NCBI GenBank assembly: GCA_012522765.1
Contig: JAAYJW010000312.1
Span: 2,753 to 66,752 of the forward strand
DNA: 64,000 bases
Source: a candidate division WS1 bacterium
GTDB taxonomy: Bacteria > Armatimonadota > Zipacnadia > Zipacnadales > UBA5352
Reading direction: 5' to 3'
How positions within the stretch are numbered: the stretch's first letter is position 1; each line of letters opens with the position of its first letter. The notes beneath the pieces are model-generated. The model worked only from the letters and a program-made list of their open reading frames with translations. It was not told the origin of the DNA and did no database searches. A program made the position numbers and the translations under genes. Shown here one piece after another: positions 1 through 13,776 of the stretch.

Positions 1-3000
1 CCTTCCTGGCACACCCATTCACGCTCGAATCCGATCCCGATCGCCTCGATCCCCTGCTGGGCGAGTTGAAGTCGCAGGGCCTCGACGGGGTGGAAGCGAT
101 CTACGGTCGCTACAGCGAGAGTGAACAGCAGCAACTGCGTAGCCTCGCCCAACAGCATGATCTGCTCGTCTCGGGGGGGAGCGATGTCCATGATCGGGGC
201 GGCGCCGGGCGCTCCCCGCTTGGCGTGGACATGCCCACTGAGCTATGGAAGCGCTTCCGCGATGCGACCGGTCGCGGCAGGCGTTCTCTCGACGAGGCCT
301 CTCACGACCAGCCGCGCCACCGGATGAAGCGGCGCCACTTCCTTCTTCACGTGCTCGTCCCGACCGTGCTGGCTATGAGCCTCTTTGTCGGAGCCATCTT
401 CGCGGTGTTTCTTCCCGCATTCGAGCGGTCACTGCTCGACCGCAAGCGGGAGACGATCAGGGAACTGACGCAGTCGGCATGGAGCATTCTCGCCGCGTAT
501 GAGCGTGACGTTCAGTCAGGGCTGCTGAACCCGGTCGAGGCGCGGGAGATGGCGGCGAGGCGTATCGAGGACCTGCGTTACGGCTCGGAGGGGAAGGACT
601 ACTTCTGGATCCAGGACCTGCAGCCTCGCATCATCATGCACCCGTACCGCCCCGAACTCAATGGCACCGACGTATCCGACTACGTCGATCAGCGAGGCGT
701 GCGTATCTTCGTGAAGTTCGCTGAAGTAGCCCGCGAGAGTGGCGGCGGATACGTGAACTACGTCTGGCAGTGGAAGGATGACCCGCGGCGCTTTGCGCCC
801 AAAGAGTCATACGTGAAGATCTTCGAACCGTGGGGATGGGTCATCGGAACCGGCCTCTACACGGAGGACGTGCAGGCGGAGATTGAGAGCCTCGAGACGA
901 ACCTGCTGCGAACTTCAGTCGGGATCGCCGTGCTGGTGGCGCTGCTTCTGCTCTACGTATTGCGCCAGAGTCTGCGGGTGGAGCGCGCGCGTTCGCAGGC
1001 GGAGGAGGGGCTGCGCGAGTCCACCGCCCGCTACCGCTCGCTGGTGGAGGCCACCAGCGAGGGCACACTCCTCGTGCAGGACGGCCGCTGTCGCTACGGC
1101 AACGCGATCCTGCTCGAGGCGGCGGACTGCAGGCAGGAGGAGCTGCAGTTGCTTGACCTCGACGACCTGCTGCCCCGGCGCGCTGAGAACGCAGAGGTAT
1201 GGGCGGAGATCGAGCGGGTTGAGGCAGGGGAGCCGGCCTCAGGCGGTATTGAGGGTGTGCTGCGGCGCAGTGACGACACGCTCGTTGAGTGCATCTTCGC
1301 CATCAGCGCCATGTCGCTGGCGGGAATACGGGGGCTGATTCTGCTGGTGACCCCTCTCGGTCGAGCGGCCGGAAGAAGCGGCGCCGCTGAGGCGTCATCC
1401 GGTATCGCTCACCAGGCGCTGGGGGAGATAGCTGAGGCCGCTCCAATTGGCCTGCTTCGAGCGCGACCTACATCGCAGGGCACCGTGTTGCGCTACAACC
1501 GGGCGGCCGAACCGCTCCTCGCGGCGGTGCAGGAAGCCGCTCCGGGTGGAGTTATGACGCTCCCACCGCTGTTCCCCGATCAGGCGGCGTGGGAGGAGTT
1601 TCTGCAGGAGACGCGGCGCGATGGCAAGGCCGAGCGCACTCTCCGCCTGCCCATCGGCGACCCGCGAAGCCTGAGCGTACGCATCGAAGCCGTGGTCACT
1701 CGCGACGAACGTGACGAACCGCGCTACCTCGACTGCTCGATTGAGGATGTGACCGCCACCGCGAGGCAACAGGCGCGACGTGAGGCGCTGATTGAGCGCC
1801 TGCAGGCTTCGATGCTCTTTTTGCACGAACCGGTGGCTCACCTGGCATCCGAGCCCGTTCTCGCCGATCCCGACGAACCCGTGCGGGAGGTAGTGAGCCG
1901 CATCACCGCTGCGGAGGCCAGTGCGGCCGTGGTGACTTCGCCTTCTGGAGAGCCAATCGGCATCTTTACCGATCAGGATCTGCGTGAGAGGATCGTCGCT
2001 GCAGGCACTGATCTGCAGACCCCGATCGGGCGCGTTATGACCGCGCCTGTCAAGTCCATCCCCGAGAACGCGGAGATCTATGAGGCGCTGGCGGCGATGG
2101 AGCGAGACTCCATCCAGCACCTTGCGCTCGAGGATCGCAGTGGGCGTGTCAGCGGCGTGGTGCACCACAGCGAACTGCTGCAGTTCCCCAACTACGGCCC
2201 GATCGTGCTGGCGCGCGACATTGACCGCTCCGACACGGTTGAGCGTGTGGTATCCGCCGCACTACGCGCGCCAACGCTTGCGGCATCATTGATTGAAAGT
2301 GGCGCCCAGCCGGCCCAGGTCACAAGCATGCTCACGTCAGTCTGCGACGCCGCCACCGTCCGCTTCATCGAACTGGCCCGGCGCGAACTCGGACCGCCAC
2401 CGCGACCGTTCGTCTTCCTCGCGCTGGGAAGCCACGGCCGTGAGGAGATGGTCCTGACCAGCGATCAGGATAACGCCCTCGTCTACGCCGATGGTGCGGG
2501 TGACGATGCGGCGGTGCAGGAGTACTTCCTCGACCTGGGGAGACGCGTCTGCGGCTGGCTGGATGACGCCGGCTACCCCTACTGCCGCGGCGAGATCATG
2601 GCGCAGAACCCGAAGTGGTGCCGGCCGCTGTCGGTGTGGAAACGGTACTTCGAGGAGTGGATACGGGCCGCAGAGCCGAACGACCTGCTGGAGTTCGTGG
2701 CATTCTTCGACTTCAGGCCCGTCTCTCGCGAGCAGGACGACAGCGCCGGTAGAGCGCTGGCCGATGAACTGCGCGAACACGTCTTCACTGATGCGGCCGG
2801 GCACCCGGCGTTCTTCAGCCATCTCGCGCAGCAGGCACTGCAGTTCAAGCCGCCGGTGCGCCTGTTCGGACGCATAATCGCCGGAGGTACGGCAGGCGAG
2901 GACGCGCGGATGGTCAACCTCAAAGACGCGCAGGCCCCACTCACTGCATTCGCGCGTCTCTATGCACTGCGCGAGCGAATCGAGCAGACGAATACCCTCG

Positions 3001-3254
3001 ACCGGCTTGAGGCGCTCGCAGGCTCCGCGGTGCTTTCCGATACCAGTGCCGAGCAGACGATCTCGGCGCAGGAGAGTTTCACCCGCCTGAGGCTCCAGCA
3101 GCAGGCTGTCGCGCTCTCTGCGGGGCGCGAAGCCGACAACCTCGTGGCCTATCACAGGCTCGGGCCGGTAGACCAGGCCATGCTCAATCAGTCATTTGCC
3201 CAGGTCGCCGCGGTGCAGAAGCGTGTCAGCTACGACTTCCTCGGCGGCACCTGA
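1..3254 (+). CDS. 5'-partial ORF: C-terminal PHP-domain (TrpH/YciV-like) region running in-frame, with no stop, into a TM - single Cache - TM - PAS - CBS pair - DUF294 nucleotidyltransferase signalling protein. An internal ATG at 324 may be the start of an independent sensor gene.
   Basis: The frame is open from base 3. PHP C-terminal motif: GLDGVEAIY...LLVSGGSDVHD. TM1: FLLHVLVPTVLAMSLFVGAIFAVF. sCache motif: DYFWIQDLQPRIIMHPYRPELNGTDVSDYVDQRGVRIF. TM2: IAVLVALLLLYVL. Tandem CBS. DUF294 NTase motifs: FLALGSHGREEMVLTSDQDNALV and DUF294_C. Confidence 0.6.
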   Translation, partial: FLAHPFTLESDPDRLDPLLGELKSQGLDGVEAIYGRYSESEQQQLRSLAQQHDLLVSGGSDVHDRGGAGRSPLGVDMPTELWKRFRDATGRGRRSLDEASHDQPRHRMKRRHFLLHVLVPTVLAMSLFVGAIFAVFLPAFERSLLDRKRETIRELTQSAWSILAAYERDVQSGLLNPVEAREMAARRIEDLRYGSEGKDYFWIQDLQPRIIMHPYRPELNGTDVSDYVDQRGVRIFVKFAEVARESGGGYVNYVWQWKDDPRRFAPKESYVKIFEPWGWVIGTGLYTEDVQAEIESLETNLLRTSVGIAVLVALLLLYVLRQSLRVERARSQAEEGLRESTARYRSLVEATSEGTLLVQDGRCRYGNAILLEAADCRQEELQLLDLDDLLPRRAENAEVWAEIERVEAGEPASGGIEGVLRRSDDTLVECIFAISAMSLAGIRGLILLVTPLGRAAGRSGAAEASSGIAHQALGEIAEAAPIGLLRARPTSQGTVLRYNRAAEPLLAAVQEAAPGGVMTLPPLFPDQAAWEEFLQETRRDGKAERTLRLPIGDPRSLSVRIEAVVTRDERDEPRYLDCSIEDVTATARQQARREALIERLQASMLFLHEPVAHLASEPVLADPDEPVREVVSRITAAEASAAVVTSPSGEPIGIFTDQDLRERIVAAGTDLQTPIGRVMTAPVKSIPENAEIYEALAAMERDSIQHLALEDRSGRVSGVVHHSELLQFPNYGPIVLARDIDRSDTVERVVSAALRAPTLAASLIESGAQPAQVTSMLTSVCDAATVRFIELARRELGPPPRPFVFLALGSHGREEMVLTSDQDNALVYADGAGDDAAVQEYFLDLGRRVCGWLDDAGYPYCRGEIMAQNPKWCRPLSVWKRYFEEWIRAAEPNDLLEFVAFFDFRPVSREQDDSAGRALADELREHVFTDAAGHPAFFSHLAQQALQFKPPVRLFGRIIAGGTAGEDARMVNLKDAQAPLTAFARLYALRERIEQTNTLDRLEALAGSAVLSDTSAEQTISAQESFTRLRLQQQAVALSAGREADNLVAYHRLGPVDQAMLNQSFAQVAAVQKRVSYDFLGGT

Positions 3255-3260
3255 GCGCCG

Positions 3261-4601
3261 CTAAATGTAGCCCAGGTCCCGCAGTCGCTGCTCGAGCAGC
3301 GCTCCACCAGGCTCTTCGTCCGCCGCCGGATGCCGGCTGCCTCGCATCCCGTCTCTCCACTGCTCCAGTCTCGCATCAAGCTCCGTGACGACGGCCGCGT
3401 TATCTGCGCTGGCATCGCGCGTCTCGCCGGGATTACGCTGCAGATCGTACAGGCGTCTGCTGCCGTCTGAGCCACGTATGTACTTCCATCGTCTCGTGCG
3501 CACACCCAGCAGATCGCGCCGCAGCGGGGCGAAGTCGTAGCTCGGGTTGCGCCGACGCAGGTTGGCGAGCTGCCCGTCCCCCCACGCCGTCCATTCGATG
3601 AACGCATGCTCGTGCCCGGCGGCCCAGGTGCGCGGCGAGAGCAGGTCCAGCGGCTGATGCGACGGCTCATAGCCCACGGGCGGTATCTGCAGGAAGCCGC
3701 AGAGCGTCGCGAGCAGGTCTGTGTGTTGGAACTGGCCGGTGATCTGCGCGCCGGGCGGCATACTCGGTGCCATCACTGCGCACGGTACGCGCACCAGCTC
3801 CTCGTGCAGCGAAGCTTGATGGTCGGCGAGTTGGTGCTCGCCGAGGTGCTCCCCATGATCGGCGGTGACCACGATGAGGCTGTCATCGAGGAGGCCCGCC
3901 TGCTGATATGCCGCGATCAGGCCCTCGGTGATGCGTACGTCGTAGTCGAGACACTGCAGATAGCGCTTGCGCGCGTCGCTCCAACCGTCGGAAGTGGCGT
4001 GCGCGGCGAATTCCCACGCCTGCGCCTGGCGGGATGTGTAGTATCGCAGATGGCCCAGCGCATAGCGCAGGCGCTCGCGTGGCGCCAAGCCCGTTGGCGG
4101 CGGCAGGTAGGGGTGGTGTGCCTCCTGCAGATGGACGACGAGCAGATCGGGCAGGCCATCAGAGGCGGCCATCTGCTGTACGCGGCGCAGGATCGCGCGC
4201 CCACCGTAGTCGAGGATGCCCAGCAGGCGCCCGAGGCCGACCTCTTTGCGGCGGCGGCGATGGGGCAGTTCGATCTGATCGGCGCGCAGGGGGATCATTG
4301 GCGGCGCATAGATGCGGTTCGCCGATAGCAGCAGAAAGCTCCTGCCGGCGTCATCGCACATCGCGGCGATTGTCGGGGCGCTGCAACGGGCCTGCATGAG
4401 GGGCCAGCCGAGTCCGTGCTCCGCCGGATGCAGGCCCGTCAGCACCGAGCCCATGACCGGTACGGTCCAGCACGAGGGGGAAATCATGTTGACCCGGGCG
4501 GCTGATGCAAGCTCCGGGCTCAAAGACCGATCGAACGCCGCGTGGGTATCCTCCCGCCGTGCGGCATCAATGATGACGAGAAGAGCCTTCCTGCGGCTCA
4601 T
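3261..4601 (-). CDS. Sulfatase-like hydrolase/transferase (alkaline phosphatase superfamily)
   Basis: VVTADHGEHLGEH motif. N-terminal SPSCWTVPVMGSVLTG resembles a degenerate sulfatase CxPxR region. ATG at 4599-4601. Confidence 0.65.
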   Translation of the reverse strand: MSRRKALLVIIDAARREDTHAAFDRSLSPELASAARVNMISPSCWTVPVMGSVLTGLHPAEHGLGWPLMQARCSAPTIAAMCDDAGRSFLLLSANRIYAPPMIPLRADQIELPHRRRRKEVGLGRLLGILDYGGRAILRRVQQMAASDGLPDLLVVHLQEAHHPYLPPPTGLAPRERLRYALGHLRYYTSRQAQAWEFAAHATSDGWSDARKRYLQCLDYDVRITEGLIAAYQQAGLLDDSLIVVTADHGEHLGEHQLADHQASLHEELVRVPCAVMAPSMPPGAQITGQFQHTDLLATLCGFLQIPPVGYEPSHQPLDLLSPRTWAAGHEHAFIEWTAWGDGQLANLRRRNPSYDFAPLRRDLLGVRTRRWKYIRGSDGSRRLYDLQRNPGETRDASADNAAVVTELDARLEQWRDGMRGSRHPAADEEPGGALLEQRLRDLGYI

Positions 4602-4736
4602 CGCGGGGGGACTCGCGAATCAGCACAGTCAGCCGTCATGTGATTCCCTCCCGCGGCTGATATTGACGCTCCGGCGCCGCAGTTCCTCATCAGGCGACCG
4701 GGACCTCCTTCGGCTCTGCCGGAGGTATCGCGTGAG

Positions 4737-4754
4737 TGGCGTGGAAGTCCACGC
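4737..4754. promoter_or_regulatory. Inverted repeat GGCGTGGA-AG-TCCACGCC in the divergent sulfatase/ceramidase intergenic region (candidate operator or leader hairpin)
   Basis: Perfect 8-bp arms with a 2-nt spacer, about 55 bp upstream of the ATG at 4808. Confidence 0.3.
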
Positions 4755-4807
4755 CGTTGAGCCGCGTAGACGCGCAGAAGTAATCACTCCGCCCGGGAGG
4801 TACCGAG

Positions 4808-6190
4808 ATGCCTGAGTCACCCTACAACACCGAAGACCTGCCGCAGATCAGGGCCGGTGTGGCCCGATCTGTCATCACACCCGAGGGCGATGTCCGTCTC
4901 GCCGGCTATTATCACGAGCGCATCGGCGGCCGCGTGCGCGATGACCTGCACTGCCGCGCGCTTGTGCTCGAGCACGACGACTGCCGCATCTGCATCGTAA
5001 CGCTCGACCTGATCTTCGTCGCCCGCACCTGGGGCGATCAGGCGCGCGCGCTGATCACCGAGCGCACCGGCATCCCCGCCGATCGCATCCTGATCTCAGC
5101 GACGCACACTCACACCGGCCCCTCGGTCAGCTCAAGCTACCGCTGGTCGGCGCCGGAGGAGTGGGTGGCGTCACTGCCGGAGAAGATCGCCGACACCGCT
5201 GAAGCCGCCGCGGGTGATATGTTCGATGCGCTGCTCTTCCTCGGCGCGCAGGAGGAGTGTCTACTCGCCAGCAATCGCCTCGGGCGCACCCGGGACGCCG
5301 ACGAAGTCTTCTCATCGCAGGGCGTCATCGGACATGCCGGCCCCGTGGATCCTGAGCTTGTCGCGATAGGCGTGCGTGAACCCGACGGTACGGTGCGCGC
5401 GGTGATGGTCAACTACGGCATGCATGTTGACGTCATCGGCGGCGGGACGGCCGACTTCGTCTCCGCCGACTGGCCGGGCATCATGGAAGAGGCCGTCGCG
5501 GGCATATACGGCGAGCAGGCGATCACGGTCTTCGTCAACGGGCCATGCGGTGACATCAACCATCGCCTGTGGCGGGAGACGCGGCAGCCGGGCGAGGGCG
5601 AGGCGAAGGCGATACAGATGGGGCGCACCTACGCTGGGCTGGCAGTGGCCGCGGTAGAGGTTGCCGAGCCGATGGAGGAGACCGGCTGCGGGTCGAAGTT
5701 CGAGGACCTGCAGATCCCCTACTACACCCGCGATGAGGCCATCATGGCCGAGATCGAGACGATGAAGCAGCGTGATGACCTGGAGTACTTCGAAGAGGCC
5801 ATCATCAAGTCATACGAGCGCTGGGACAAGGACGGGCAGATCGCGCAGGTTCCGGTGCAGGTGATGCGCTTTGGCGAGCTGATGATCGTCGGCCTGCCCG
5901 GTGAGATCTTCACAAAGTGGGGGATGGAGATCAAGCACTGGTCGCCGACTCCATGGACGATCGTGGTGGAGCTTGCCAACGACGCTCTCGGCTACATCCC
6001 CACCACCGATCAGGCGAGCCGCGGCGGCTACGGCGCGAAGCCGATCCTCTCGCGCCGCCTGATCGCCGATGCAGGGCGGCAGATCACTGACTGGGTGCAG
6101 ACGGCGATGTGGGAGGTCTGGGAGGGAGAGGATCGCCCGACCGAGCGTCCGCGCCTCGGCGAGGGCGGCAGCGCGGTGCCCCGGAGATGA
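4808..6190 (+). CDS. Neutral/alkaline non-lysosomal ceramidase-like protein
   Basis: N-terminal domain motifs AGYYHER...ALVL..D..RICIVTLDLIF...ILISATHTHTGP match the bacterial neutral ceramidase family. RBS GGGAGG upstream. Confidence 0.65.
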   Translation: MPESPYNTEDLPQIRAGVARSVITPEGDVRLAGYYHERIGGRVRDDLHCRALVLEHDDCRICIVTLDLIFVARTWGDQARALITERTGIPADRILISATHTHTGPSVSSSYRWSAPEEWVASLPEKIADTAEAAAGDMFDALLFLGAQEECLLASNRLGRTRDADEVFSSQGVIGHAGPVDPELVAIGVREPDGTVRAVMVNYGMHVDVIGGGTADFVSADWPGIMEEAVAGIYGEQAITVFVNGPCGDINHRLWRETRQPGEGEAKAIQMGRTYAGLAVAAVEVAEPMEETGCGSKFEDLQIPYYTRDEAIMAEIETMKQRDDLEYFEEAIIKSYERWDKDGQIAQVPVQVMRFGELMIVGLPGEIFTKWGMEIKHWSPTPWTIVVELANDALGYIPTTDQASRGGYGAKPILSRRLIADAGRQITDWVQTAMWEVWEGEDRPTERPRLGEGGSAVPRR

Positions 6191-6293
6191 TCGTCTGGGT
6201 CTGAGTGGACCCTCCGCGGGTTCGATTGATAGCCCCGTACCACCGCGGGCGCGGAGAGTCAGATGGCGTTCATAATGGAAGGGAGTCGTGAAG

Positions 6294-7484
6294 ATGGAAA
6301 AGCTTCGAGTCGGTATTTTGGGCCTGCGCCGAGGGATGTCGCACCTGCGCAACTTCATGCGCGTTGATGAAGCGGAAGTCATCGGCTGTGCGGATCGGAT
6401 AGAGAGCATGCGGGAGCGGGCGCGCGAGGTCGCTCCGGACGTGCCGATGGTCGCGGAGTTCGAGGAACTGCTGGAGATGGAGCCGGACGCCATCGCTGTC
6501 GCCACTAACGGCCGCATGCAGGCGCAGCACACGATCCAGGCGCTGCAGGCGGGCTGCCACGTGCTCTCCGAGGTGCCGGGCGCATTCACCGCCGAGGAGT
6601 GCCATCACATCGTCGCCACGGTCCAGTTGACGGGGAAGCAATACATGCTGGCGGAGAACTCGTCATTCCTCGACTTCCTGCGCTACTGGCGCAAATGGGT
6701 CATGGAGAAGAGCATGGGCGAAATATCGATGGCCGAGGGGGAATACCTCCACTACCTGCCGAACACACTCATAACGGTGGACGGCGAGCGCTACACTCCC
6801 GCCCAGTGTGTGGAGGACGGCATCAGCGGCGCGTTTCCGTGCTGGCGGGCCGATCAGCCGCCGATTCAGTACCTGACGCACGACCTGGGGCCGCTGCTCG
6901 AGGTGCTCGATGACCACGTGGTGTCGGTCTCCTGCCGCGAGGCCCCGTGGTGGCAGGACCAGGCGCCGCTGAGGTCCGACGGGCAGATAGCGCTCTTCCA
7001 GACGGCCGCGGGGCGCCTGATCAAGATCACAGTCACGCTCAACACGATGCGGCCGGCATCGCACAACTATCGGCTCTTTGGCACCCGCGGCAGCGCCGAG
7101 TGGTACTCTCACGAGGGCTTCTGCCGGGTCTGCGACCGAGACCGCGAGGAGCGCGAGGGCTGGGAGTGTGTGCCGATAGGCACGGCCGCGCCTGACGACG
7201 ACAAGAGCGTCGGCCACGGAGGCACCGACATCAAGACCGCCTACTACTTCACGAAGGCGATACTTGGGGACCGTCCGGTGCCGATAGATGTCTACCGGAT
7301 GTGCGACTATACGCTGCCGGGCATCCTGGCGGCGCGCTCGGCCGAACTCGGTGGACAGCCGATTACCGTGCCTGACGTTCGCACCGGCCCGCGCGGCCTG
7401 ACCGACTTTTGGAATCACGTTCCGGTGCCCGAGAGCGAACCGGATCGGTGGGACTACAAGTCACCCAGCGAAATGAAGTACTGA
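6294..7484 (+). CDS. Gfo/Idh/MocA family NAD(P)-dependent oxidoreductase
   Basis: N-terminal Rossmann region MEKLRVGILGLRRGMSHL...AIAVATNGRMQAQHTIQALQAGCHVLSE. The alternative GTG at 6288 is also possible. Confidence 0.8.
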   Translation: MEKLRVGILGLRRGMSHLRNFMRVDEAEVIGCADRIESMRERAREVAPDVPMVAEFEELLEMEPDAIAVATNGRMQAQHTIQALQAGCHVLSEVPGAFTAEECHHIVATVQLTGKQYMLAENSSFLDFLRYWRKWVMEKSMGEISMAEGEYLHYLPNTLITVDGERYTPAQCVEDGISGAFPCWRADQPPIQYLTHDLGPLLEVLDDHVVSVSCREAPWWQDQAPLRSDGQIALFQTAAGRLIKITVTLNTMRPASHNYRLFGTRGSAEWYSHEGFCRVCDRDREEREGWECVPIGTAAPDDDKSVGHGGTDIKTAYYFTKAILGDRPVPIDVYRMCDYTLPGILAARSAELGGQPITVPDVRTGPRGLTDFWNHVPVPESEPDRWDYKSPSEMKY

Positions 7485-7549
7485 TTCGCTCGACACAGCA
7501 GGTAGGTGGTGGTGGGAGCCCGCCCTCTGAGCGGGCTCCCCGGAGGAGG

Positions 7550-8524
7550 ATGAAGATGCTTGCATGCCCGTTCAAACGCGCGAAGACCAACCCGCTCATC
7601 ACTCCGGACGATCTACCCTTTGAGAACAACGGAGTGTTCAACCCGGCCGTGGCCGACCTCGGCGATGAGATGGTCCTGCTGCTGCGGATTGAGCGGCGGG
7701 AGGGCATTTCGGAACTGCGCATCGCACGAAGCCCCAACGGGGTGGACAACTGGGAGTTTGCCGATGAGCCGCTGCTCAGTCCGGACCTGCCGGACTACCC
7801 CTTTGAGGAATGGGGCTGCGAGGATCCGCGGATAACCAGGCTGGAAAACGGGCAGTGGGCAGTGGCGTACACAGCCTACGGGCGCTACGGAGCCACAGTG
7901 GCCGTAGCCATCATTGATGACAGCTTCGAATCAGTTGAGCGCCTCGGCTCAGTCACCATGCCGCCGAATAAGAACGCGGCCCTGTATCCGGTCAAGTTCG
8001 ATGGTCGCTGGGTGATGCTCAACAGGCCGGAGACCGGTGGCAGGCCACAGATATGGTACGCCTACAGCCACGAGGACAATCTCGCCGAGTGGACACTGCC
8101 GGGCCTGCTGATCCCAACGCATCTGGGCCCGTGGTGGGACTCCACCCGCATTGGCGCCGGCGCTCCGCCCATCCTCACCGAAGATGGCTGGTTGCTGATC
8201 TACCATGGCGCAAAGGCGGCTGCAGGCGTTCTCACGTACAGGCTGGGGCTGGCGCTGGTTGATCGCGATGATCCACGGAAGGTGCTCGCTCGGGCTTCAG
8301 ACTGGGTCTTCGCCCCCGTTGCTCCCTACGAGACCGACGGCGTGGCCGGGAATGTGGTCTTCACCTGCGGCGCGGCGGTGCGAGATGACGAGGTCTGGAT
8401 GTACTACGGAGCGTCGGATATGTACGTGGCGCTTGCCCGGGCGGACATTAAAGACCTGCTGGAGTTCGTCTGGAAGTACAACTACCTCGAGGAAGCCGGG
8501 CGCGACAAGGGAATGCGCGATTGA
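7550..8524 (+). CDS. Glycoside hydrolase family 130 (beta-mannoside phosphorylase/hydrolase-like)
   Basis: VFNPAV...LLLRIE, CEDPRIT, LIYHGA and YETDG...NVVF motifs. RBS GGAGGAGG. Start could also be 7556. Confidence 0.8.
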   Translation: MKMLACPFKRAKTNPLITPDDLPFENNGVFNPAVADLGDEMVLLLRIERREGISELRIARSPNGVDNWEFADEPLLSPDLPDYPFEEWGCEDPRITRLENGQWAVAYTAYGRYGATVAVAIIDDSFESVERLGSVTMPPNKNAALYPVKFDGRWVMLNRPETGGRPQIWYAYSHEDNLAEWTLPGLLIPTHLGPWWDSTRIGAGAPPILTEDGWLLIYHGAKAAAGVLTYRLGLALVDRDDPRKVLARASDWVFAPVAPYETDGVAGNVVFTCGAAVRDDEVWMYYGASDMYVALARADIKDLLEFVWKYNYLEEAGRDKGMRD

Positions 8525-12804: not shown

Positions 12805-12912
12805 CAATTAGCCTCCAGTTGCAGAAACGGGCAGGAATGTTGGCGCAGGCTGCGAACCTTGCGCCACTTCGTCATGGTCGCGTAATGCACCTTGGAGTGA
12901 GGGAGGATCATC

Positions 12913-13776
12913 ATGGAGGACTTTCGCGCCGCGGCAGTGCAGATGAATGCGCCGCTGGGCGAAGTTGAGGGGAACCTTGACCGGATCGAGGGGTGGACGC
13001 AGCGGGCGGCGTCGGAGGGCGCGCGGCTCATCTGCTTCCCGGAACTTGCGGTATCGGGCCACTGGTGCGACGGCGAGATCTGGGACGTCGCCGAGGAAGT
13101 ACCTGGCGGGCTGAGCTGCACGAGGCTCGAGCGGCTCGCGGAGGAACTAACTTGCTTCCTCTCGGTGGGCATAGCCGAGCTTGACGCGGGGCTCGTCTAC
13201 AACACGCAGATGATCATCGGCCCGCGCGGGCTGATCGGAAAGCAGCGGAAGCTGCACATGTCCGCGGATGAGTACTTCCACTTTCGCACCGGCGGAAGCA
13301 TCAACGTGATTGACGTGGGCTTCTGCCGCCTCGGCATCGGCATCTGCTACGATACAGTCTTCCCGGAGACCGCGCGCATAGCGGCGCTCAAGGGCGCCGA
13401 GGTGTATCTGGCGCCACATGCCGCCCGCTGCGGCCAGTGGACTGACGATGCCGACAGACAGCGGGAGAAGGTTGCGACGGTGAAGGATCACGCACGAATG
13501 ACCTTCCGTTCGCGGGCCTGCGACAACGGCATGTTCGTCATATATTGCAACCAAGCCGGTCCCGCAGGGCCTGAAACCAACCACTGCGGCGGCATACTCT
13601 TCGTTGATCCCTCCGGGGTTGTTCTGGCCGAGTCGGAGACTGATGTGATCGAGGACGACATGGTGATCTGCGACCTTGCCGCCGAACTCTACAATGCCCG
13701 GCGACGGGCGCGCTGCTTCAATCTCCAGACGCGCCGGCCGGAGATCTACGGCGAGATCTGCCGGATGAACGACTGA
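12913..13776 (+). CDS. Carbon-nitrogen hydrolase (nitrilase superfamily)
   Basis: E-K-C triad context: ICFPEL, RKLHM, GIGICYD. Confidence 0.85.
   Translation: MEDFRAAAVQMNAPLGEVEGNLDRIEGWTQRAASEGARLICFPELAVSGHWCDGEIWDVAEEVPGGLSCTRLERLAEELTCFLSVGIAELDAGLVYNTQMIIGPRGLIGKQRKLHMSADEYFHFRTGGSINVIDVGFCRLGIGICYDTVFPETARIAALKGAEVYLAPHAARCGQWTDDADRQREKVATVKDHARMTFRSRACDNGMFVIYCNQAGPAGPETNHCGGILFVDPSGVVLAESETDVIEDDMVICDLAAELYNARRRARCFNLQTRRPEIYGEICRMND

Follow-up and report, generated by a model that had tools for sequence, protein, structure and literature searches.

Fusion of a PHP phosphoesterase to a Cache sensor and a DUF294 nucleotidyltransferase, with a proposed role in monocarboxylate uptake

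The first 3,254 nucleotides of a 64,000-nucleotide stretch of DNA from a candidate division WS1 bacterium (GCA_012522765.1, contig JAAYJW010000312.1, positions 2,753 to 66,752 of the forward strand; this whole stretch is called the window here) join the end of a PHP phosphoesterase to a membrane-bound sensor and a DUF294 nucleotidyltransferase (NTase), and we were interested whether this is indeed one protein or two genes run together, and what such a protein may do. Translation of the open reading frames (ORFs) showed frame 3 to be free of stops from nt 3 to the TGA at 3252-3254, with 1083 codons within the window, so that an earlier sequence-only reading, in which the frame is open from the window edge to 3254, was correct. 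Pfam, NCBIfam and hydropathy analysis also confirmed the domain order it had proposed, with the PHP C-terminus followed by a transmembrane (TM) helix, sCache, a second TM helix, PAS, tandem CBS and DUF294 (Table 1). The full-length product (P0001, 1237 aa) is 100% identical to the window translation. In the upstream DNA a GTG is followed six codons on by an ATG, giving MSATTRVELHCH, and because a start at MSATTRVELHCH matches the N-termini of the homologues, the true product is likely the one of 1231 aa that begins with these residues.

The same locus was fetched from six assemblies (JGI 3300038805, three from ENA and two from Logan, with four underlying datasets), by way of the sulfatase gene that adjoins it (3261-4601, minus strand). 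Five of the six span the whole gene, and window positions 1-3254 were found in all five with 0 mismatches; the four datasets behind them are JGI 3300038805, ERZ2847836, SRR3166067 and SRR2016834. Every gene caller predicted one product of 1231 or 1237 aa with the PHP domain N-terminal in these five assemblies. A protein search over 5.8 billion proteins led to P0001 and 119 further clusters, at least 120 in all, with the further ones 46-62% identical to the window protein; query coverage is 99-100% for 119 of the 120 and never below 86%. A length of 1199-1272 aa is found in about 110 of these homologues, and most carry PF02811; a few are shorter (1066-1120 aa) and seem truncated, with a start that is still inside the PHP domain. 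Of the two explanations first offered for the open frame, the lost stop or frameshift is therefore refuted by the identical assemblies and the at least 120 fused homologue clusters, and a real PHP-sensor-NTase fusion, conserved with the PHP C-terminus included, is borne out: the ORF is a genuine, ancient gene fusion. It had also been considered that homologues might uniformly start at the internal Met (nt 324). This Met is found in only the closest ~8 homologues, and in the junction alignment of 120 homologues its position is otherwise taken by L, F, W or P. Since the Met is not conserved, an internal start at nt 324 was ruled out as a general rule. No Shine-Dalgarno-like or promoter-like signal was found upstream of nt 324 and no promoter-like site around the junction, and a single terminator-like match near it (nt 389-402) lies within chance expectation. 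For annotation this means that long PHP-sensor ORFs of such a type should be neither split nor flagged as frameshifted.

The window holds the end of the PHP domain, with residues 2-70 of the window protein aligned to positions 189-257 of the NCBIfam profiles (276 positions) for 3',5'-nucleoside bisphosphate phosphatase and RNase RNM. Sequence search of the PDB with the PHP domain gave 3e0f, 2yb1 and 7ug9 (E 1e-21 to 1e-23), and database records list PF02811 for full-length P0001 as well as for the gene of loci L001-L005. All nine metal ligands (H16, H18, D23, H48, E73, H84, H158, D215 and H217 in P0001; pattern HxH, D, H, E, H, H, DxH) occupy the ligand positions of 2yb1 and 7ug9 in the alignment and are kept in every one of the 120 homologues that covers them; the window portion carries H158 (AHP, nt 12-14), D215 and H217 (GGSDVHD). 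The domain thus shares the PHP fold and the nine trinuclear-site ligands with the TrpH/YciV group, comprising RNase AM (E. coli, 7UG9) and the Cv1693 3',5'-nucleoside bisphosphate phosphatase (2YB1), at E ~1e-22, and a stand-alone PHP protein from a related locus (L015, see below) matches the same NCBIfam models as these two enzymes. Unlike TrpH/RNase AM, the PHP of the window protein is tethered to a membrane sensor, is co-inherited with an NTase and scores far under the equivalog cutoffs: the 400 bits required compare to 30 bits for the window fragment and 130 bits for the stand-alone L015 PHP. By the scores with the pAp phosphatase and RNase RNM models, the domain is a relative and not an equivalog. 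Residue 290 of E. coli RNase AM (7UG9, 293 aa) aligns with P0001 residue 244, and because the alignment stops there, the PHP domain ends at about window residue 90 (nt ~272) and the fusion point lies exactly at the end of a stand-alone PHP enzyme. The PHP C-terminus had been recognised correctly from the letters and placed at residues 1-85; its extent has to be corrected to about residue 90, with ~20 linker residues before TM1. In the junction alignment a conserved MPTxxWKxFRDAV is followed by a variable linker of ~20-50 residues, a basic stretch and TM1. Four homologues (P0007, P0010, P0040 and P0041) have no PF02811 annotation, begin at a Met ~25-35 residues inside the PHP domain and lack the HxH, and from their sequences they are probably mis-called starts rather than degenerate PHP domains; the PHP calls of P0007, P0040 and P0041 (each ≤1200 aa) are N-terminally truncated.

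The Cache domain lies between the two TM segments, and basic residues are found on their cytoplasmic sides, ahead of TM1 towards PHP and behind TM2. This charge distribution fits an N-in topology and is consistent with the earlier argument that a cytoplasmic PHP domain stands ahead of TM1. Comparison of the Cache domain with the PDB gave 4K08 (Adeh_3718; E 5e-32) and 5G4Y (PscD; E 3e-31), with weaker matches to 2QHK and 4EXO. PscD binds glycolate, acetate, propionate and pyruvate and contacts its ligand with Y90, W92, H103, F126, Y143, W145 and K156, and 4K08 was crystallised with acetate and 4EXO with pyruvate (Brewster et al., PMC5062169). All seven contact residues are identical in P0001, as Y354, W356, H367, F390, Y407, W409 and K421 (codons from nt 600, 606, 639, 708, 759, 765 and 801), and are conserved in 119-120 of the 120 family members. 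Because of this identity and family-wide conservation, a C2/C3 carboxylate (acetate, propionate, pyruvate or glycolate) is strongly predicted as the ligand, which fits the symporter neighbourhood of the fused family described below. The nearest known sCache_2 chemoreceptor sensors are PscD (5G4Y) and Adeh_3718 (4K08), with a likeness that extends over the whole domain, and the V. parahaemolyticus methyl-accepting chemotaxis protein (MCP; 4EXO/2QHK). Unlike in these sensors, the output of the window protein is a nucleotidyltransferase/phosphoesterase instead of an MCP signalling domain or histidine kinase. For the cytoplasmic PAS-like region, which is partly absent from shorter fused relatives, the homologues show matches to PF00989, PF08448 and PF13426. 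The CBS part forms two units in the AlphaFold2 model and matches CBS-pair structures in Foldseek at template modelling scores (TMt) of 0.7-0.8.

In the NTase domain the motifs GSHGREE...SDQDN and a third carboxylate in FFDFR correspond to the Pol-beta-type G[SG]...DxD pattern, and G963, G966, R967, E969, D975, D977 and D1057 are invariant in 120 of 120 homologues. With catalytic and metal-ligand residues intact in the sequence, both enzymes look active. A cNMP_binding domain (for cyclic nucleotides, cNMP) was not matched by Pfam in the window protein, which has PHP-TM-Cache-TM-PAS in its place. When the PDB was searched by sequence with the NTase module, no solved DUF294 structure turned up and only CBS proteins matched. 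A confident AlphaFold2 model was obtained for the CBS-DUF294-DUF294_C part (predicted local distance difference test, pLDDT, 91.8; predicted template modelling score, pTM, 0.79), and the best non-CBS matches of Foldseek in the PDB were GlnE 1v4a (E 5e-9), DrrA 6yx5_B (E 3e-8, TMt 0.68) and GlnE 3k7d (E 5e-7), thus both halves of E. coli GlnE (1V4A and 3K7D) and the AMPylation domain of Legionella DrrA (6YX5_B). This agrees with the placement of DUF294_C in a clan with the C-terminal domains of GlnD and GlnE (PMC3710099). Like the window protein, GlnD (PII uridylyltransferase/uridylyl-removing enzyme) and GlnE (glutamine synthetase adenylyltransferase/deadenylylase) have a Pol-beta-type NTase followed by a helical KNTase_C-clan domain, and the GlnE domains are the best structural matches to the predicted model of its NTase module. 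GlnE, DrrA and GlnD-type enzymes nucleotidylylate or de-nucleotidylylate proteins, and in GlnD and GlnE a single polypeptide carries 'write' and 'erase' activity together with small-molecule sensor domains. Unlike these two, the window protein is without HD, ACT and a second NTase; PHP is the candidate for an eraser, and the genomic context of the fused family is carboxylate transport instead of nitrogen regulation.

When 1.84 billion cluster representatives were searched exhaustively with HMMER, 3157 matched at E ≤ 1e-30. The best 150 of these 3157, which represent clusters at 50% identity, include at least 52 PHP-fused proteins and at least 57 without PHP that start from TM1 and are ~950-990 aa long, so that a Cache domain next to DUF294 is not the atypical combination it had been taken for. 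The fusion itself, which had been called novel, turned out to be carried by hundreds of proteins from metagenome-assembled genomes (MAGs), named by NCBI 'DUF294 nucleotidyltransferase-like domain-containing protein'. A literature search found no paper on PHP- or Cache-containing DUF294 variants, most matches to 'DUF294' being false ones to DUF2946/DUF2947; the architecture is common in uncultured lineages under a generic database name. A genome scan with one genome per GTDB species confirmed at least 549 relatives, and the locus counts given from here on rest on the best 80 of these at least 549 loci, with 46 fused and 33 PHP-less ones. By the submitters' labels the 46 fused loci come from Armatimonadota, many Chloroflexota, Verrucomicrobia/Lentisphaerae/Kiritimatiellia, Planctomycetes, Sumerlaeota, NC10, Gemmatimonadota, Holophagaceae (Acidobacteriota), Aminicenantes, Fibrobacterota, Cloacimonadota, Spirochaetes and Bdellovibrionales, i.e. 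about a dozen phyla at species level with 37-60% identity. The 33 PHP-less loci belong to Bacteroidota/Ignavibacteria/Chlorobi, delta-proteobacteria, Myxococcales, Elusimicrobia, Leptospirales and others. A neighbour-joining (NJ) tree was calculated from the shared region between TM1 and the C-terminus (unbootstrapped, midpoint root). The window protein clusters with Armatimonadota sequences in the search list as well as in this tree. Most PHP-less sequences associated with a Metallophos gene form one clade, the split PHP form of L015 stands outside both this clade and the main fused clade, and several fused lineages, as well as the exonuclease-associated ones, branch near the base; fused forms are not cleanly monophyletic. 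The tree is compatible with an old fusion followed by replacement of PHP, or with repeated fusion.

Which proteins accompany the NTase when it is not fused to PHP can be seen from the relatives. Locus L015 represents a split form, with DUF485, an SSF symporter, a separate 292-aa PHP gene and, after a 16-nt gap, a 971-aa Cache-PAS-CBS-DUF294 gene; its PHP is 39% identical to the fused PHP domain (E 6e-53). A calcineurin-like Metallophos gene (~260 aa) adjoins the sensor-NTase gene in 16 of the 33 PHP-less loci, directly upstream in 13 and directly downstream or convergent in three, and a DnaQ/RNase T-like (DEDD) exonuclease gene adjoins a PHP-less gene in two loci (L043 and L014). Locus L014 holds two DUF294 systems back to back, since a classical 608-aa CBS-DUF294 gene with an RNase T-like exonuclease (340-2858, minus strand) is divergent from a 974-aa Cache-PAS-CBS-DUF294 gene (3095-6019). 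Beside the PHP-less Cache-DUF294 gene of L074 a Crp-like regulator (12867-13601, minus strand; cNMP_binding and HTH_Crp_2) is convergent, a reminder that cNMP sensing is otherwise linked to this NTase family in the classical proteins. These classical cNMP-CBS-DUF294 proteins of Proteobacteria (~600 aa) are 23-36% identical over the CBS-NTase part, and their records show the DUF294 gene beside a 3'-5' exonuclease gene and preceded by genes for a small membrane protein and an SSF symporter. The gene order is DUF485, cation/acetate symporter, DUF294 and exonuclease in P. aeruginosa, acs, DUF4212, SSF, DUF294, two further genes and exonuclease in Paracoccus denitrificans, DUF294 and exonuclease in Vibrio pelagius, and DUF4212, SSF and DUF294 in Skermanella. 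On P. denitrificans plasmid 1 (L010, 7277-10118) the exonuclease has 659 aa, and a 165-aa hypothetical protein with no Pfam match and a response-regulator gene lie between it and DUF294, so that some versions of the module may include additional signalling components. The classical COG2905 module (PA3233/PA3232 beside actP-yjcH; PP_0354/PP_0353 of P. alloputida; Paracoccus denitrificans plasmid 1) and the fused family have the same core of CBS pair, DUF294 and DUF294_C and the same pairing with a phosphodiester-hydrolysing enzyme; most fused genes, like the classical ones, also follow genes for a small membrane protein and an SSF monocarboxylate symporter. They differ in input, as the fused protein is membrane-anchored with a periplasmic Cache domain, two TM helices and PAS whereas the classical COG2905 protein has a cytoplasmic cNMP-binding domain, and in the hydrolase, which is an N-terminal PHP domain in the former and a separately encoded DEDD exonuclease in the latter. 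The window protein is best classed as the Cache/PAS-input, PHP-fused version of this known, uncharacterised DUF294-exonuclease-SSF module.

Transporter genes are found beside fused genes as well. An ActP/MctC-like SSF gene lies within 4 kb in 38 of the 46, and 35 of these 38 also have DUF485 or DUF4212. Upstream sequence was sufficient in 40 of the fused loci, and in 29 of these a DUF485-SSF pair immediately precedes the fused gene in the same orientation, at no more than 300 nt; four fused loci are divergent, three of them with acs nearby. The SSF protein scores best with the MctC model (447 bits) and the ActP model (392 bits), both under the equivalog cutoffs. In L008 (6007-7917), as in L015 (4978-6900) and most fused loci, the SSF protein is ~635-640 aa long and has a hydrophilic insertion of ~170 residues that P. 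aeruginosa ActP, with 551 aa, does not have. The insertion follows the fifth hydrophobic segment and precedes the sixth, at about residues 195-365, and may serve as a regulatory or target domain. Two loci from Bacteroidota/Ignavibacteria (L063, 7875-9116, and L065, 8660-9925) hold an ORF of ~415 aa with a signal-peptide-like N-terminus and no Pfam match between the SSF and the phosphoesterase/sensor genes, which might encode an outer-membrane channel for the same substrate. For the classical module a connection to transport has been reported before. DUF4212, a small SSF symporter subunit needed for the use of lactate or D-alanine, is cofit with a nearby COG2905/RNase T gene, and it was speculated that this gene is needed for symporter expression (Price et al., 10.1101/072470). 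PA3232-PA3235 are induced ~16-fold on propionate (10.1101/2022.08.25.505149). PP_0353/PP_0354 depend on MxtR/ErdR, and growth on propionate and pyruvate is moderately impaired when they are deleted; their function is regarded as unclear by the authors, who suggest protein modification (10.64898/2026.09.07.749794).

The conserved module can be described as a DUF294 NTase, a phosphodiesterase and a monocarboxylate symporter, of which the window protein is one version, with the phosphodiesterase in four forms (fused PHP, separate PHP gene, calcineurin-like metallophosphoesterase or DnaQ/RNase T-like exonuclease). The best reading of it, which we consider rather probable, is a carboxylate-sensing 'writer-eraser' nucleotidylylation switch that governs monocarboxylate uptake. 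An external carboxylate would be sensed by the Cache domain and the internal redox or energy state by PAS and CBS, and these inputs would set the activity of the NTase, which would add adenosine or uridine monophosphate (AMP or UMP) to a target. PHP would hydrolyse this phosphodiester again, in analogy to GlnD with its UTase/NTase, HD and ACT domains, and the output would be the expression or activity of the neighbouring DUF485/ActP-MctC-type transporter; we infer both that the transporter is the output and that regulation runs in this direction. Since the coupling recurs with three unrelated hydrolase folds, either fused or adjacent, NTase and hydrolase would be expected to act on one and the same product. 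As the target of the NTase, a protein rather than RNA or an oligonucleotide is the first choice from the predicted fold, at chances slightly short of even.

Several points weigh against the writer-eraser switch. Neither the 64-kb window nor the 6.7 kb ahead of it contains an ActP or DUF485 gene, so that the link to a transporter is not seen in the window organism itself, and ActP/DUF485 are likewise absent near a minority of the fused loci (L017, L029, L034 and L036). No recognisable phosphoesterase gene is adjacent in 17 of the 33 PHP-less loci, where the neighbours belong to unrelated families (SDR, nitroreductase, Crp-like regulator, TPR). The fold similarity to GlnE/DrrA is moderate (TM scores 0.46-0.68), and the Pfam GlnE family PF03710 stays sub-threshold at 13.1 bits versus a cutoff of 24. 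The rough NJ tree does not separate one fusion from several, and we know of no DUF294 protein with a known biochemical activity or an identified target. Finally, DEDD exonucleases and TrpH-type PHP enzymes are known to act on nucleic acids or nucleotides and not on protein-NMP adducts, which speaks for an RNA or oligonucleotide product rather than a protein target.

This last point leads to the rival that survives best, which we regard as possible, if rather unlikely. The module would be the same, with a DUF294 NTase that acts on nucleic acid or free nucleotides, either tailing or repairing a specific RNA 3' end (e.g. of the symporter mRNA) or making a linear or cyclic oligonucleotide signal, and the PHP or RNase T-like/calcineurin-like partner would trim or degrade the product. 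All three partner families include nucleases or nucleotide phosphodiesterases, PHP has matches in RNase AM (7ug9), a 5'-3' exoribonuclease, and in 2yb1, a pAp phosphatase, the proteobacterial partners are DEDD 3'-5' exonucleases, and Price et al. speculated that symporter expression requires the COG2905/RNase T gene. On the other hand, the closest NTase folds are the protein AMPylases GlnE and DrrA rather than CCA-adding enzymes, poly(A) polymerases or CD-NTases, the loci show no evident oligonucleotide receptor, and no conserved RNA element was detected, Rfam finding nothing in the whole 64-kb window, where a tRNA scan was empty too. A second rival, in which a housekeeping TrpH/RNase AM-like PHP gene lost its stop upstream of a sensor gene and the PHP domain is independent or inert, would make the fusion functionally meaningless. 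A variable, poorly conserved linker and a split form in which the genes stand apart would be in line with it, but the fusion is kept in about a dozen phyla at 37-60% identity with nine intact metal ligands, another phosphoesterase gene occupies the same position where PHP is absent, and the classical family is paired with an exonuclease, so that we find it very improbable. A contig-specific artefact or pseudo-fusion (sequencing or assembly error, recent stop loss or frameshift), or two proteins made via the in-frame ATG at 324-326 just ahead of TM1, the point where PHP-less relatives begin, can practically be dismissed in view of the junction identical in five assemblies from four datasets, the unbroken frame in at least 120 homologue clusters, and an ATG that is kept as Met in only ~8 close relatives and has no promoter-like or Shine-Dalgarno-like signal upstream.

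DUF294/COG2905 is a widespread signalling-type NTase, with more than 3,000 clusters at E ≤ 1e-30, and co-regulation or cofitness of its genes with transporters for short-chain carboxylates is known from Pseudomonas and Shewanella. The fused family adds a predicted ligand, as its Cache pocket matches that of acetate/propionate sensors, evidence, drawn from gene fusion and gene replacement, for a functional dependence of the NTase on a phosphodiesterase partner of whatever fold, and, from the modelled structure, a pointer to protein AMPylases of the GlnE/DrrA type. Taken together, the clues on ligand, partner and fold make DUF294 function experimentally approachable under the hypothesis of a carboxylate-controlled writer-eraser switch on monocarboxylate uptake. 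A wider proposal, which we put forward as tentative and doubtful, is that DUF294 proteins are the writers of an unrecognised reversible protein AMPylation/UMPylation system by which a large share of bacteria tunes how acetate, propionate and pyruvate are taken up or activated, with an ActP/MctC-type symporter, its DUF485 partner or Acs as the target and the PHP, calcineurin-like and RNase T-like enzymes as interchangeable erasers. If this were true, the window protein would be its most compact self-contained version, with external carboxylate sensor, writer and eraser on one chain.

Table 1. Features of the fused gene in window coordinates (nt), with strand and the evidence for each assignment.
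Feature	Position	Strand	Evidence and remarks
Whole gene, part in window	3..3254	+	3' 88% of one gene; first 148-154 codons upstream of window; stop 3252-3254
C-terminal third of TrpH/RNase AM-type PHP phosphoesterase domain	3..272	+	NCBIfam partial matches, PDB sequence matches, ligand conservation
Variable PHP-TM1 linker	273..335	+	Non-conserved Met codon 324-326, basic RHRMKRRH stretch; junction alignment
TM helix 1	336..410 (P0001 266-290)	+	Kyte-Doolittle maximum 2.44; five K/R in preceding 15 residues
Periplasmic sCache_2	438..893	+	Pfam PF17200, 126.9 bits, E 8e-37, window residues 146-297
TM helix 2	906..968 (P0001 456-476)	+	Kyte-Doolittle maximum 2.31; LRVERAR after
Cytoplasmic PAS-like region, probably two PAS modules	1005..1802	+	Weak PAS_8 match, window residues 342-393; boundaries inferred
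Tandem CBS pair	1845..2183	+	Pfam CBS, 2 stretches, E 1.5e-14; best stretch residues 675-727
DUF294 NTase catalytic domain	2268..2678	+	Pfam PF03445, 157.6 bits (cutoff 21), E 2e-46, residues 756-892
DUF294_C helical 'substrate-binding' domain, KNTase_C/HEPN-like clan	2805..3239	+	Pfam PF10335, 116.2 bits (cutoff 22.5), E 1e-33, residues 935-1079

The window gene lies between the sulfatase gene and a non-conserved gene for a 389-aa protein (L001 15190-16359), which is divergent from it across a 146-nt intergenic region and has no Pfam family on record. As an alternative partner this 389-aa gene was ruled out, because no homologue was found in ~90 other loci. Around them (window 3261-8524 and L001 1-9800) are genes related to glycan degradation, namely sulfatase, ceramidase-like, GFO/IDH/MocA oxidoreductase, GH130, GH20 and PIG-L, and in the same regions there are also small Pmp3, FeoB-associated and Flp/Fap genes.

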